Positions 14,531-50,082 are shown, counted from the first letter of the stretch. The stretch is 64,000 nucleotides of DNA from an uncultured Clostridia bacterium (GCA_947649935.1 CANSTR010000005.1:2591-66590); one strand, 5' to 3'. Translations and numbers: made by a program. Notes: generated by a model not told the origin, from the letters alone.

Positions 14531-14554
14531 GTAGGGGCACGAGGCATCGTGCCC
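14531..14554 (+). repeat. GC-rich hairpin repeat copy (GTAGGGGC family)
   Basis: GTAGGGGCACGA-GGCA-TCGTGCCC, 12 nt after the adhE stop. Confidence 0.7.
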
Positions 14555-14560
14555 TTAAAA

Positions 14561-14720
14561 CGTAAAATAGATTTTACAAAAATAAAGAAATATATAAAAA
14601 TGTAAAATTAATTTTATAAAAATAAAAATAAATACAATTTTGTAAAATCTATTTTATAAAATTGTAAAATAATACGATTTTGTAAAGTCTGTTTTACAAA
14701 ATTGACAAAATCACTAAAAT
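14561..14720. repeat. 4 x 40 bp degenerate tandem repeat, each unit with a GTAAAAT-NN-ATTTTAY palindrome
   Basis: Palindromes start at 14562, 14602, 14642 and 14682, an exact 40 bp phasing. The last unit overlaps the -35 of the downstream promoter. Confidence 0.8.
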
Positions 14721-14731
14721 GTGCTATACTT
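14703..14731 (+). promoter_or_regulatory. Sigma-A type promoter
   Basis: TTGACA (14703-08), 17 nt spacer, TATACT (14726-31), upstream of the ATPase gene. Confidence 0.55.
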
Positions 14732-46403: not shown

Positions 46404-48249
46404 AATCATGATTGATACGCATCATATGAAAAATCAAATCAAATTTTATGTGAAAAAATATGGAATTTTTAAAACAATTTTGAAATGTTTGAAAGTGGGA
46501 AGTCGAAAATTAATTCGTATTTTAAAAGGCGAACGTGATGTGAATTATGGCGATTATGGCGACTGGATTCACAGCAATGAGGTGCGCGATTGGGAAATTA
46601 AGGCACAGACGAAAAAGAAATTCAAAAACATGCCGAAAATTAGCATCGTAGTTCCGATGTATCATACCAAAGAAAAGTTTTTGAAAGAATTGGTGAATTC
46701 TGTTTTGCAGCAAACATACAGCAATTGGGAACTTTGTTTTGCCGACGGGAGCGAAACGCAAAACGAAAAATTGCATAAAATTCTGGAAAAAGATCGTCGT
46801 ATCAAATACCAATTTTTGCATGAAAATAAGGGTATTTCGGAGAATACCAATCAAGCCATCAAAATGGCAACTGGCGATTATATCGCGCTTTTGGACCATG
46901 ATGATGTGCTTGCAAAGTATGCGTTATACGAAGTGGTCAAAAGGATAAATCAATTTCCAGAAGCGGAATTTTTATATTCGGATGAAGATAAAATCGACCA
47001 AAATGGTAATCGTTTTGATGCCTATTTTAAGCCAGAATTTGCGCCAGATACACTCAGATGCCAAAATTATATTTGCCATTTTAGCGTTTTCAAAAAGGAA
47101 TTGATGGACAAGCTAGGTGGTTTTCGTTCAGAATTTGATGGTGCGCAGGATTATGATATTTTTTTGCGCATGTCGGAAGTGGTAAAGCCGGAAAATATCA
47201 AGCATATTCCGCGTATTTTGTATCATTGGCGCGTGCATAAAGGTTCGACGGCGATGGAAAATAGCGAAGCGAAAAATTATGCCTTTGACAATGGAATTAA
47301 GGCAATCGAGGCGCATTTGGAAAGAGTGGGGCTAGCTGGAAAAGTTTCCAATGGTGCGATTCCTGGAATTTACCGCATCGATTACGAGGTGAAAGGCAAT
47401 CCAAAAGTTTCGCTTGTGATTCCCAATAAAGATGGCAAAGAAATTTTGGAAGTGTGCATCAATTCTGTGCTTCAAAAAACGACGTATGAGAATTACGAAA
47501 TCGTGATTGTCGAGAATAATAGTGAGACAGAGGAAATTTTTGCATATTACAAAGAGTTAGAAAAGAACGAAAAAATTAAGGTTGTCAAATATCCAAAAAC
47601 AGGGTTTAACTATTCGGGAATTGTGAATTTTGGGGTCAAAAATTGCACAGGAGAATATGTGGTTCAACTGAATAATGATACCGAGTTACTGACGCCGAAT
47701 TGGCTGGAAATCATGCTTGGCTTTGCGCAAAGGAGCGATGTTGGCGCCGTTGGTGTGAAGTTGTATTATCCAGATGAGACGATTCAGCATGCTGGTATTA
47801 TTGTTGGGCTTGGCGGTGTTGCGGGAAATCGTTTCAAAAGTATTCCGAAAAAGGGACACGGCTATTTTGCACAGGAAAGCATGATACAGAATTTAAGCGC
47901 CGTCACAGCTGCGTGCATTATGACGCCGAAAAGCATGTATGAAGAAGTTGGTTACATGGACGAAAAATTGGCGGTTGCGTTTAATGACGTGGATTTTTGC
48001 TTGAAAATTCGTGAAAAAGGCTATTTGATTGTGTACAATCCGTTTGTGGAGTTTGTGCATTATGAATCCAAAAGTCGAGGCGAGGAAAATACGCTGGAGA
48101 AAATCAAACGTTTTCAAGGCGAGATTAATACTTTTAAGGAAAAGTGGCAGAATTTTTTGGATGAAGGTGACCCGTATTATAACATCAATTTGAGTTTGGA
48201 TACAGAAGTGTATCATATGAAGCGTGTTCGAATTAATCATGATAAATAG
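46396..48249 (+). CDS. Dual-domain GT2 glycosyltransferase
   Basis: 617 aa. Two GT-A modules (ISIVVPMYHTKEKF...LDHDD; VSLVIPNKDG...IVENNSE...LNNDTE). Paralog of 48259. Confidence 0.85.
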   Translation: MGEIMIDTHHMKNQIKFYVKKYGIFKTILKCLKVGSRKLIRILKGERDVNYGDYGDWIHSNEVRDWEIKAQTKKKFKNMPKISIVVPMYHTKEKFLKELVNSVLQQTYSNWELCFADGSETQNEKLHKILEKDRRIKYQFLHENKGISENTNQAIKMATGDYIALLDHDDVLAKYALYEVVKRINQFPEAEFLYSDEDKIDQNGNRFDAYFKPEFAPDTLRCQNYICHFSVFKKELMDKLGGFRSEFDGAQDYDIFLRMSEVVKPENIKHIPRILYHWRVHKGSTAMENSEAKNYAFDNGIKAIEAHLERVGLAGKVSNGAIPGIYRIDYEVKGNPKVSLVIPNKDGKEILEVCINSVLQKTTYENYEIVIVENNSETEEIFAYYKELEKNEKIKVVKYPKTGFNYSGIVNFGVKNCTGEYVVQLNNDTELLTPNWLEIMLGFAQRSDVGAVGVKLYYPDETIQHAGIIVGLGGVAGNRFKSIPKKGHGYFAQESMIQNLSAVTAACIMTPKSMYEEVGYMDEKLAVAFNDVDFCLKIREKGYLIVYNPFVEFVHYESKSRGEENTLEKIKRFQGEINTFKEKWQNFLDEGDPYYNINLSLDTEVYHMKRVRINHDK

Positions 48250-48258
48250 GGAGAAACT

Positions 48259-50082
48259 ATGAAATATCAGTTGCAAAAAATAGTTTATTATTTAAAGCGA
48301 TATGGGATTTGGAAAACGATTCAAAAAATCGTTTTGCGTGTTTTTCGATTGGAAAAAAGGAAGCAAAAATCAGCACAAGAATTATACCAAAATTGGATGG
48401 CGAAAAAGGAACCAAGCGAGGCAGAATTGGAATTGCAAAAAAATGAGCCATTTGCTTTTCAGCCTAAAATTAGCATTGTGGTTCCGATGTACAATCCAGA
48501 GGAAAATTTGTTTTTGGAGTTACTCAATTCAGTGTTATTGCAAACATATTCAAATTGGGAACTTTGTTTGGCAGATGGAAGTGAGCAAAAAAATGATACA
48601 ATTGTTGCGTTGTGTAGCGATAATCCTAAGATAAAATATCAGTTTTTGGGTGAAAATAAAGGGATTTCGGAAAATACGAATGAAGCGTTGAAAATGGCAA
48701 CTGGCGATTTTATCGCTTTTGTGGACCACGATGATTGCGTATCGCCATTTGCGTTGTATGAGATTGTGAAGGCAATCAATGAGCATCCAGAGGCGGAATT
48801 GATTTACTCTGATGAGGACAAAATTGACGAGTTGGGCAATCGTTTTGCGCCGTATTTTAAGCCGGATTTTTCGCCAGAAACGTTGGAATGCAATAATTAT
48901 ATCACGCATTTGGTGGTGATGAAAAAAGAGTTGGTGCAGAAGATTGGCAAGTTGGATAGCCGTTTTGATGGTGCACAGGATTTTGATTATGTCTTGCGCG
49001 CAACGGAAAATACGAAGCAAATTCTTCATATTCCAAAGATTTTGTATCATTGGAGAACGACGCAAAATTCGACTGCCAATGTAGCAGAAAACAAATTATA
49101 CGCATTTGACGCAGGTTTGAAGGCTGTGGAAGAACATTTGAAAAGAACTCACAAAAAGGCAACAGTGGAAAATCCGGGAGAGGTGCCAGGAATTTATCAA
49201 ATCAAATTTGCGATAGAAGGCACGCCAAAAGTTTCCATTCTGATTCCTAATAAAGATAATCTACGAACTTTGCAAAAATGTATTGCATCAATTTTGAAAA
49301 ATTCGACTTATAAAAATTACGAAATTATCGTGATTGAAAATAATAGTGAAAAATCAAAAACGTTTGAATATTACAAAAAAGTGCAAGAAAATCCAAAAGT
49401 AAAAGTGATTGTGAGCCAAGAAAAAGAATTTAATTATGCGAAGTTGATTAATTTTGGCGTGAAAAATGCGACGGGAGATTTCGTTTTGCAACTCAATAAT
49501 GATACCCAAGTTTTGACGAAAGATTGGCTAGAATTGCTAATTGGATATGCGCAAAATCAGGAAATTGGAGCCGTTGGGGCGCGTTTGTATTATCCAGATA
49601 AAACGATACAACATGCAGGAATTGCGGTTGGCATTCAAGGAACAGCAGCGAATTTGTTGGTGAATTTGCCATTTGGTCAGCATGGCTATTTTGCCAGAGA
49701 AGCGGCGACCAGAAATGTAGCCGCAGTGACTGGTGCATGCTTGTTTGCAAGACGTGAAATATATCAAGAAGTTGGTTTTATGGATGAAGAATTGTTCAAA
49801 GTTGCTTTTAATGATGTAGATTTTTGTCTAAAAATACTTGAAAAAGGTTACAGAGTAGTGTATAATCCTTATGTGGAATTCATTCACGCAGAGTCGAAAA
49901 CGCGTGGATTGGAGGATACGCCAGAGAAACAGGCGAGATTTGAGCGTGAAAAAAGGAATTTTCAGGAAAAATGGAAAGCATTTTTGCAAAAAGGTGACCC
50001 GTATTATAATGAAAATTTCTCGCGAGAAGATTGCCATTTCACGGTAGGGGAAGATAGCCTACATCGACCCATCACGAAATAA
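48259..50082 (+). CDS. Dual-domain GT2 glycosyltransferase
   Basis: 607 aa. ISIVVPMYNPEENL...VDHDD and VSILIPNKDN...IENNSE...LNNDTQ. The last 13 codons lie in a repeat copy. Confidence 0.85.
   Translation: MKYQLQKIVYYLKRYGIWKTIQKIVLRVFRLEKRKQKSAQELYQNWMAKKEPSEAELELQKNEPFAFQPKISIVVPMYNPEENLFLELLNSVLLQTYSNWELCLADGSEQKNDTIVALCSDNPKIKYQFLGENKGISENTNEALKMATGDFIAFVDHDDCVSPFALYEIVKAINEHPEAELIYSDEDKIDELGNRFAPYFKPDFSPETLECNNYITHLVVMKKELVQKIGKLDSRFDGAQDFDYVLRATENTKQILHIPKILYHWRTTQNSTANVAENKLYAFDAGLKAVEEHLKRTHKKATVENPGEVPGIYQIKFAIEGTPKVSILIPNKDNLRTLQKCIASILKNSTYKNYEIIVIENNSEKSKTFEYYKKVQENPKVKVIVSQEKEFNYAKLINFGVKNATGDFVLQLNNDTQVLTKDWLELLIGYAQNQEIGAVGARLYYPDKTIQHAGIAVGIQGTAANLLVNLPFGQHGYFAREAATRNVAAVTGACLFARREIYQEVGFMDEELFKVAFNDVDFCLKILEKGYRVVYNPYVEFIHAESKTRGLEDTPEKQARFEREKRNFQEKWKAFLQKGDPYYNENFSREDCHFTVGEDSLHRPITK
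50044..50070 (+). repeat. GC-rich repeat copy forming a CDS 3' end
   Basis: GTAGGGGAAGATAGCCTACATCGACCC is read as VGEDSLHRP. Confidence 0.65.

Follow-up and report, generated by a model that had tools for sequence, protein, structure and literature searches.

A GTAG-type REP family in Clostridia and its candidate RAYT-like genes

Repetitive extragenic palindromic sequences (REPs) of the GTAG type have been defined operationally as a GTAG (or GTGG) tetranucleotide 0-2 nt 5' of a GC-rich, fully paired stem of 7-20 bp with a loop of 2-5 nt (Quentin 2018), with at least three G/C in the first four stem bases and typically more than 100 dispersed copies (Quentin 2018; Di Nocera 2013, PMC3733652). 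In the 2013 survey their hosts belong to the Proteobacteria, the Cyanobacteria, the Chloroflexi and the PVC group, and Firmicutes are absent (PMC3733652). Among the tyrosine transposases associated with REPs (RAYTs), a 2017 survey placed group 1 in Clostridia and linked only groups 2 and 3 to REPs; group 3 enzymes serve perfect-palindrome REPs, for example Marinomonas REP-Mb (Corneloup et al. 2021, PMC8266576). In published REPtrons the REPs flank the RAYT gene or overlap its ends. Here we analyse a family of GC-rich hairpins in a 64,000-nt stretch of DNA from an uncultured Clostridia bacterium (the window; coordinates are positions in the whole stretch), and we consider it likely that these elements are GTAG-superfamily REPs belonging to a large, mostly Oscillospirales family of Clostridia that is mobilised via a RAYT-like enzyme.

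The unit follows one plan: (Y)GTAG, a stem of 8-9 bp starting with GGG(C), a loop of 3-4 nt and a return arm ending in (G)CCC, in which the tag and the stem base are conserved and every change in the inner stem is a paired one. Fifteen units occupy 14 places in the window (Table 1), with the tag reading GTAG in 13, ATAG in one and GTAC in one, at an offset of 0-1 nt from the stem. Eight units have perfect stems of 8-9 bp with loops of 3-4 nt, starting GGGC, GGTC or GGAC, two carry one or two mismatches and five are decayed; by folding, the units at 29615, 43907, 44084 and 50044 are decayed or bulged, and RNA fold energies of nine units range from -12.8 to -18.4 kcal/mol. Besides plain and decayed units there are special forms, namely a doubly tagged palindrome (GTAG...CTAC) and tail-to-tail dimers with the tags outermost. 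A one-base insertion giving GATAGCC is common to the decayed units at 43907, 44084 and 50044 and was seen only in this species.

These units are far more frequent than chance would give in a window of 35% GC. GTAGGGG occurs nine times against 1.3 expected (none of 100 shuffles reached nine), and in six cases GTAG stands at offset 0-1 ahead of a perfect hairpin with 7 bp or more, where 200 dinucleotide shuffles gave 0.16 (maximum two). A stable DNA hairpin follows 10 of the 15 exact GTAGGG sites, compared with 4% of random 29-mers, and eight of the nine perfect GC-rich hairpins (stem of at least 7 bp) in the window are family members, the ninth, at 26771, being an ordinary T-tailed terminator. 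We also built a covariance model, R1, from 26 diverse units and ran it without filters; equal-length seeds were used because MAFFT placed end gaps that misaligned units of unequal length. Because only perfect hairpins were taken as seeds, the model serves for detection and not as a test of covariation, and one seed was entered with GTAG although the window copy at 35357 has ATAG. R1 gave 21 matches at E<=10 over the 64 kb, all on sites already listed and with no copies beyond them, and the inventory is therefore complete. Nine sites scored below E=0.01 (14531, 16663/16690, 35357 on the minus strand, 39602, 39653, 39719 on the minus strand, 42248 and 45601), weaker matches fell on 35223, 35285, 43907, 43973-43998 (minus strand) and 50044, and the sites at 29615 and 44084 were missed as too decayed to score. 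At gathering thresholds Rfam recognised three tRNAs in the window and no RNA family at the REP sites. All 14 places named in the initial annotation carry the element, and each paired stem difference quoted there can be read in the sequence. Its coordinates stand overall, with the tag given at 42247 starting at 42248; its reverse copies exist too, although the one placed at 43971 occupies 43973-43998 with a GTAC tag and that at 35334-35357 carries ATAG.

That the stems change by compensatory substitutions, as had been proposed, was borne out by a test free of selection for pairing, in which the search pattern left two stem positions per arm free. Among 218 non-redundant copies both free pairs were Watson-Crick in 206, in eight dinucleotide types, where chance would give 1/16. 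Imperfect free pairs were G-T in five cases and other mismatches in eight, so that G-T is not favoured and the pairs give no specific sign of selection at the RNA level. The tag is just as distinctive: directly 5' of the perfect hairpins in the loci that we fetched, GTAG was the tetranucleotide in 133 of 556 cases and the runner-up in 20. About 1.5 Mb of sampled sequence held 143 distinct perfect units. Over 534 non-redundant units, a pyrimidine occupies position -1 in 92% and position -2 in 75%, and G occupies +1 in 74%; on this sequence pattern, these three positions are candidate cleavage or target positions. We considered whether the A-rich downstream tails of the window copies belong to the unit and rejected this, since the + strand is A-rich throughout and family-wide only G at +1 and a pyrimidine at +2 are conserved there. 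Dimers in the fetched loci are tail-to-tail in 48 cases (modal spacer 53-55 nt), head-to-head in 26 and direct in 45.

The family extends well beyond the window. Collection scans used a pattern for the CCCA-loop subtype only, so the taxonomic picture rests on that one subtype. The pattern matched 53 stretches of IMG/VR contigs, with fewer than three expected by chance, and a stricter version matched more than 119 stretches of GTDB species genomes among the matches listed. Among these same matches the GTDB hosts are nearly all metagenome-assembled genomes (MAGs) and isolates of Oscillospirales/Clostridia, with 33-67% GC; those named include Ruminococcus flavefaciens, Faecousia, Acutalibacteraceae and Flavonifractor, and the window's own genome is absent. 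The IMG/VR stretches (L009-L061; L numbers denote individual sequence stretches), classified as viral, often have several REPs per contig, also as inverted pairs. Two REP-bearing stretches of about 61% GC (L128 and L138) are titled 'Bacteroidaceae bacterium', and one of them has a typical clostridial RAYT-like gene; the label probably reflects a binning error and not a true presence in Bacteroidota.

Copies also continue next to the window in the same species. Five more lie in the 10 kb past its 3' end, among housekeeping-type genes, so that the family is not bound to the polysaccharide locus; they include two tail-to-tail dimers with the stem types of the 39653/39719 pair, a second unit of the 29615 type and another TAG serving as a stop codon. 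This brings the count to 19-20 units, depending on convention, in about 74 kb of this species, inside and outside the polysaccharide locus. The recurring stem subtypes are GGGCACGR, GGGCGATT, GGGCRACT-agc, GGGCGGCT-atc and the CCCA-loop type. Together with the viral and genome stretches, these copies remove the concern, raised at the outset, that the element might be restricted to one locus. The window's different stems are for the most part separate REP subtypes, recurring in the species and in other genomes and each with a RAYT-like gene of its own, and not the product of free drift at each site.

Probing of the fetched loci for RAYTs, by tblastn with approximate E. coli RAYT and IS200 queries and with checks of the matches by NCBIfam, Pfam and fold search, returned three open reading frames (ORFs) of 158-233 aa. 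They match NCBIfam NF047646, REP_Tyr_transpos ('REP-associated tyrosine transposase'), at E=1e-13 to 1e-19, and Pfam Y1_Tnp weakly and below threshold. A sequence-only search of the PDB was marginal; the AlphaFold (AF2) model of a homologue, with a mean-confidence score (pLDDT) of 83, has as its best PDB match 4ER8, E. coli TnpA-REP in complex with a REP (E=1.6e-7, TM 0.57), followed by the IS608, ISDra2 and IS200 transposases. With an HUH motif, conserved tyrosines and this predicted fold, the putative enzyme is RAYT-like and of a distinct subfamily.

These genes carry REPs in frame. A sense copy lies just after beta-1 and encodes VG(D/G)DAHI(V/A)P, and an antisense copy lies just after the HUH strand and encodes G(S/T/P)MWAS(T/S/A)PT; in the genes of Table 1 the two peptides of the pair read VGxDAHIxP and GxMWASxPT or are type-specific equivalents. 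In the best 120 of 7044 homologues (E<=1e-5) the site-1 peptide is kept in 113 and the site-2 peptide in 116, with a third embedded copy as an indel in 30. Covariation of the amino-acid pairs D/V, G/A, S/T and P/A is exactly what pairing of the DNA stem demands, and in a MAG of 39% GC the RAYT-like gene is AT-rich outside its two perfect GC-rich REPs; it is therefore at the nucleic-acid level that the hairpins are held. The AF2 model places the site-1 peptide in a beta-hairpin with confidence, and the site-2 peptide in a loop with low confidence. A more distant set of 80 metagenome homologues, at 33-49% identity, has perfect GTAG hairpins inside the ORF in 54, the sense/antisense pair at the two sites in 37 and a single doubly tagged palindrome at the second site in about nine. 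Across 30 of the RAYT-like genes we counted 23 stem types, and the two embedded copies are identical within a gene in 21 of the 30, compared with 2.4% between genes. The same REP type also flanks many of these genes just outside, in stretches that are all from related genomes (L198, L201, L207, L211, L212, L219, L222, L227, L237, L261 and L276). RAYT-associated types include GGGCACGA (one loop base from the unit at 14531), GGGCACGG, GGGCGATT, GGGCGGAT-atc and the CCCA-loop type, all of them subtypes of the window itself. Many of the contigs with RAYT-like genes are shorter than 3 kb, a sign that assemblies may break at the repeats.

Table 1. Units of the REP family in the window, and RAYT-like genes with an embedded inverted REP pair in other sequence stretches. 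Fold, RNA fold energy; R1, covariance model score.
Feature	Position	Strand	Context and support
REP unit GTAG-GGGCACGA-ggca-TCGTGCCC	14531..14554	+	12 nt past adhE stop; R1 32.5 bits, E=2e-6; fold -18.4 kcal/mol
Doubly tagged palindrome GTAGGGACATGGTGCACCATGCCCCTAC	16663..16690	both	between convergent genes; R1 26.6 + 24.2 bits
Bulged REP variant GTAGGGACTACGTAAGCACCGTGCCC	29615..29640	+	weak fold; no R1 match
CCCA-loop REP GTAGAGGTCGACGCCCACGTCGACCC	35223..35248	+	8 nt past stop of 791-aa glycosyltransferase; perfect-hairpin scan and fold
Partly decayed unit GTAGGGGCACGGGGCTACCTAAGCCC	35285..35310	+	R1 12.8 bits; just a 5-bp hairpin left
Antisense REP ATAG-GGACACAG-ggca-CTGTGTCC	35334..35357	-	R1 21.1 bits; fold -12.8 kcal/mol
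REP with internal mismatches GTAGGGGTAGGGTTCCACCCCTGCCC	39602..39627	+	1 nt past methyltransferase stop; R1 18.9 bits; fold -15.8 kcal/mol
Tail-to-tail REP dimer, GTAG ends outermost (REPIN-like)	39653..39719	both	R1 22.9 + 24.0 bits
Dimer sense arm GGGCAACT/AGTTGCCC	39653-39675	+	followed by 21-nt spacer
Dimer antisense arm GGGCGATT/AATCGCCC	39697-39719	-	ends 14 nt before ATG of ORF 39734
REP GTAG-GGGCGGCT-atc-AGCCGCCC	42248..42270	+	13 nt past stop; R1 25 bits; fold -16.9 kcal/mol
Decayed CCCA-subtype unit GTAGGGTCAGATAGCCCTCATTGACCC, one-base insertion	43907..43933	+	R1 12.7 bits
Antisense REP GTAC-A-GGTCGATG-ccta-CATCGACC-C	43973..43998	-	partner of 43907 (tail-to-tail dimer 43907/43998); fold -13.5 kcal/mol
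Decayed unit GTAGAGGCAGATAGCCCTCATCGAC	44084..44108	+	10 nt before ribosome-binding site of ORF 44119
Canonical CCCA-subtype REP	45601..45626	+	in frame within ORF 44119-46044; R1 23.9 bits
Decayed unit GTAGGGGAAGATAGCCTACATCGACCC	50044..50070	+	R1 9.5 bits; no stable fold
RAYT-like gene with embedded REP pair	L088:1572-2081	-	
RAYT-like gene with embedded REP pair	L138:1932-2408	+	
RAYT-like gene with embedded REP pair	L083:7030-7731	-	
RAYT-like gene with embedded REP pair	L196:10001-10456	+	
RAYT-like genes with embedded REP pair	L197-L276		

Nearly all genes in the window lie on the + strand, and 12 of the 15 units sit either in the gap from a stop codon to the following ribosome-binding site or between convergent genes, the sense copies at 14531, 35223, 39602 and 42248 being 1-13 nt past stop codons. 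Of the remaining units two form ORF tails (50044 and 16663) and one is intragenic and in frame (45601). The initial annotation had put 12 of the 14 places within the 27-50 kb polysaccharide locus and beside stops or ribosome-binding sites; this holds, except that the unit at 45601 lies inside an ORF and those at 50044 and 16663 supply the last codons of theirs. Indeed, the tag itself can end a gene: the rmlC stop codon is the TAG of the 29615 unit (29616-29618), and the glycosyltransferase (GT2) gene at 42282-43910 stops at the TAG of the 43907 unit (43908-43910). The palindrome at 16663 ends ORF 15945-16697, the 50044 unit encodes the C-terminal tail (VGEDSLHRPITK*) of ORF 48259-50082, and the 42248 unit abuts the GAGGAGG ribosome-binding site of ORF 42282. 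The copy at 45601 is translated as V-G-A-D-A-H-I-C-P, residues 495-503 of a 641-aa glycosyltransferase, in the linker between its GT-B half domains (Glyco_transf_4 ends at residue 494 and Glycos_transf_1 starts at 508); the paralogue at 32839-35214 is shorter by 6 aa at this insertion point. The REP-coded peptide (window 45591-45689; L187:16969-17043) gives a spurious tblastn similarity to RAYT-like proteins.

Comparison with other strains and genomes shows how individual copies recur. The 14531 unit is conserved in strain L001 and differs by one loop nucleotide from the REP that is embedded in, and flanks, the RAYT-like gene of L276; in L001 the 16663 palindrome is perfect, and the doubly tagged type is also present in L115 and inside the RAYT-like genes of L253-L276. 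The 29615 26-mer recurs with one difference in the same species (L277:16831), where two sister dimers (L277:16882/16955 and 17746/17818) have the same two stem types as the dimer at 39653/39719, which folds as a whole (39650-39722) with -35.2 kcal/mol (z=-6.2). The counterpart of 35223 in strain L182 has the canonical GTAGGGG tag; the 35334 unit, which is the third in the cluster at 35223-35357 and lies upstream of the ABC-2 permease gene, is identical in nine strain contigs. The 42248 23-mer occurs three times among the fetched loci, the window's own copy included, and the 45601 copy is conserved in strain L187.

Same-species contigs at 97-99% identity keep each window copy, with point differences only; there are two polymorphisms. 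Where the ABC-2 permease gene has its 3' end, a REP, GTAGGGGCACGGGGTACCGTGCCC, whose TAG is the stop codon, occurs in at least three strain assemblies (L181, L183 and L184), whereas in the window and in L182 an unrelated 160-nt multi-hairpin element stands in its place. In strain L189 a 74-nt deletion between TGTAGG microhomologies (L189:15258-15385, compared with window 43906-43979) takes out the 43907 REP together with the spacer and one half of its partner, an example of rearrangement mediated by REPs. In strain L184 the long rmlA-rmlC spacer might have been a REP insertion, but on inspection it is not a REP.

Set beside the described GTAG REPs (PMC3733652), above all the perfect-palindrome REPs of group 3 RAYTs (PMC8266576), the family shares the unpaired 5' GTAG, a short loop on a GC-rich 6-9 bp stem, complementary stem changes that set subfamilies apart, tail-to-tail and head-to-head dimers with spacers of 20-100 nt, and a location downstream of ORFs with occasional intragenic copies. 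It differs in its host, the Clostridia (Bacillota), a phylum outside the 2013 catalogue, in a very high stem diversity with several subtypes within 74 kb of one genome, and in the doubly tagged palindrome form. The reading of these repeats as REP- or BIME-like (bacterial interspersed mosaic element) thus finds support in the fit to the operational definition, the inverted dimers and the association of close relatives with RAYT-like genes; the consensus, first taken to be unnamed, falls within the published superfamily, although Clostridia are missing from the 2013 survey. The foldable pairs of inverted REPs with a spacer (39653-39719 and its sisters) resemble REPINs (REP doublets forming hairpins; Bertels and Rainey 2011) and BIMEs. 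Unlike these, the dimer arms in this species carry unlike inner stems, so each arm therefore folds better alone than with its partner, and singlets are as common as dimers.

The HUH motif, the tyrosines, the fold and, in related genomes, the flanking REPs of the gene's own type are shared with the REPtron and its RAYT (TnpA-REP, E. coli YafM, 4ER8). The enzyme here differs in scoring below the NCBIfam equivalog cut-off, in that most homologues carry a translated inverted pair of cognate REPs bracketing the HUH strand, and in that no RAYT gene was found in the searched sequence of the window's species. A limited literature search returned no paper joining RAYT, REPIN and Firmicutes, no description of a cognate REP pair inside a RAYT reading frame and no catalogue entry for a Clostridia REP family; we provisionally regard the embedded arrangement as novel. 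The subterminal hairpins of IS200/IS605 elements, too, combine a single-stranded DNA hairpin with a 4-nt guide for a Y1 HUH enzyme, although here there is no element body between two unlike ends, no transposase in the mobile unit, and the units measure 23-27 nt. A bias to the lagging-strand template, reported for IS200/IS605, would be shared too. Other small repeats of Firmicutes, the pneumococcal BOX, RUP and SPRITE and the staphylococcal STAR, are short, intergenic, structured and multicopy like the present family; to our knowledge their consensus sequences are unrelated and they have neither a GTAG tag nor an association with RAYTs.

By analogy with the proteobacterial REP/RAYT systems, the hairpin would extrude on single-stranded DNA. 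The window has positive GC and AT skew throughout, and the tagged strand here would be the lagging-strand template because the + strand would be the leading strand. A RAYT-like enzyme would read the GTAG guide together with the shape of the hairpin and would nick and rejoin the DNA beside it, as proposed from TnpA-REP and IS200/IS605, and such nicking and rejoining would spread or maintain copies. If shape and not inner-stem sequence is read, only copies that pair would stay competent as substrates, which would therefore yield the compensatory pattern and RAYT-specific subtypes. The window copies look old and fixed among strains, and would survive where an insertion is tolerated: past stops, at the 3' ends of genes and within the linker of a protein. 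In the co-directional polysaccharide operon the transcribed hairpins, at -13 to -18 kcal/mol, are probably, in a secondary role, barriers to 3' exonucleases or modulators of translation termination, and not terminators; those just past stops may stabilise upstream mRNA segments and slow terminating ribosomes. A slowing of terminating ribosomes is reported for E. coli REPs that lie no more than 15 nt from a stop codon. A more tentative proposal is that the pairing of REP and RAYT in Clostridia departs from the proteobacterial model, that the RAYT-like gene, with its own inverted cognate REP pair bracketing the HUH strand, is a REPIN-like substrate, that stems co-diversify with RAYT lineages and that the at least five stem types in the window record several such lineages.

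Several observations weigh against mobilisation by a RAYT-like enzyme. The RAYT-like ORFs score 49-70 bits, under the curated NF047646 equivalog cut-off of 80. No RAYT-like gene was found in about 74 kb of unique same-species sequence (the search covered 409 kb, counting in redundant strain contigs and loci L003-L008 of the sister species, 88% identical in DnaE). Strains at 97-99% identity retain all window copies with no sign of recent transposition, and four or five of them are decayed. The orientation bias in the window (11 sense, three or four antisense) fits replication or transcription alike, and the two are inseparable because all genes here run with replication. Some of these points favour the alternative that the units are fossil REPs, relics of a past invasion with no active RAYT now, kept as neutral or mildly useful RNA hairpins. 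This overlaps the mobile-REP reading and differs only on present-day mobility; it would account for copy positions identical across all strain contigs, for the decayed units, for the lack of a RAYT-like gene in the sequence searched and for a sister species (88% DnaE identity) with no copies in 23 kb. Yet perfect GC-rich palindromes persist in a 35% GC genome despite the AT-biased erosion to be expected, the three copies of the GATAGCC-insertion subtype imply that copying continued after that mutation, and one site, the ABC-2 3' end, is polymorphic between a REP and another element; we regard the fossil alternative as rather unlikely.

It is less probable still that the units are locally selected RNA hairpins, acting as mRNA 3' stabilisers or as stop-proximal structures that slow ribosomes, and alike through a shared RNA-binding factor and not through mobility. 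Strong RNA folds, copies 0-13 nt past stops within a co-directional operon and a family-wide excess of sense units after gene 3' ends (69, against 30 antisense, by crude ORF calls) would suit such a role, but units are also found antisense, in inverted dimers, in frame in proteins and both within and next to RAYT-like genes, the conserved GTAG, an unpaired tag, equals the known DNA guide of RAYTs, and the imperfect pairs show no preference for G-T. The option of intrinsic (Rho-independent) termination, included in the initial annotation, finds no support, and we give it hardly any credence. The units are indeed GC-rich hairpins sited after genes, but an intrinsic terminator has a T/U tract directly after the hairpin, while the sense copies have A-rich tails with no T tract and the terminator scan called none of them on the + strand, with weak calls only for antisense members; moreover, units separate genes that belong to one operon and stand just a few nucleotides ahead of the following ribosome-binding site, and the sole classical terminator in the window (26771) looks different. 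REPs mobilised via a RAYT-like enzyme thus remain our preferred account.

Other features of the locus can be listed briefly. The GC-rich multi-hairpin element at the ABC-2 3' end (36176-36341), between the permease gene and the next gene, folds with -67 kcal/mol and contains two similar AAGGRCGCTGYCCTT hairpins; it had no further copy in the collected sequence and no Rfam match, and a permissive Rfam scan of 35100-36500 gave only sub-threshold chance matches (isrD and STnc310). The glycosyltransferase that follows (36342-37314) consists of two overlapping ORFs of 184 and 162 aa, or 170 and 162 aa in other strains, and may be a frameshifted gene. A HEPN/nucleotidyltransferase (MNT-type) gene pair lies within the polysaccharide locus at 32129-32829, by the Pfam labels of identical genes on strain contigs.

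Studies of REPs and RAYTs have been made almost entirely in Proteobacteria, and the spread of REPs and the role of RAYTs are open questions. We find that the GTAG REP design abounds in phage-like contigs and in Clostridia of gut and rumen, over a range of 33-67% GC, and the family supplies hundreds of natural compensatory stem variants. On a practical matter, the REP-coded peptides (VGADAHIxP and GxMWASxPT) are an annotation hazard, giving spurious ORFs and false protein similarities, and the repeats probably break metagenome assemblies. Furthermore, RAYT-like genes with an in-frame REP pair offer a direct handle on a possible action of RAYTs on their own genes and on the co-evolution of REP specificity with the enzyme; if the proposal of a REPIN-like substrate within the gene is true, the embedded pair could serve for autoregulation, as a switch, or as the master copy of the dispersed REPs.

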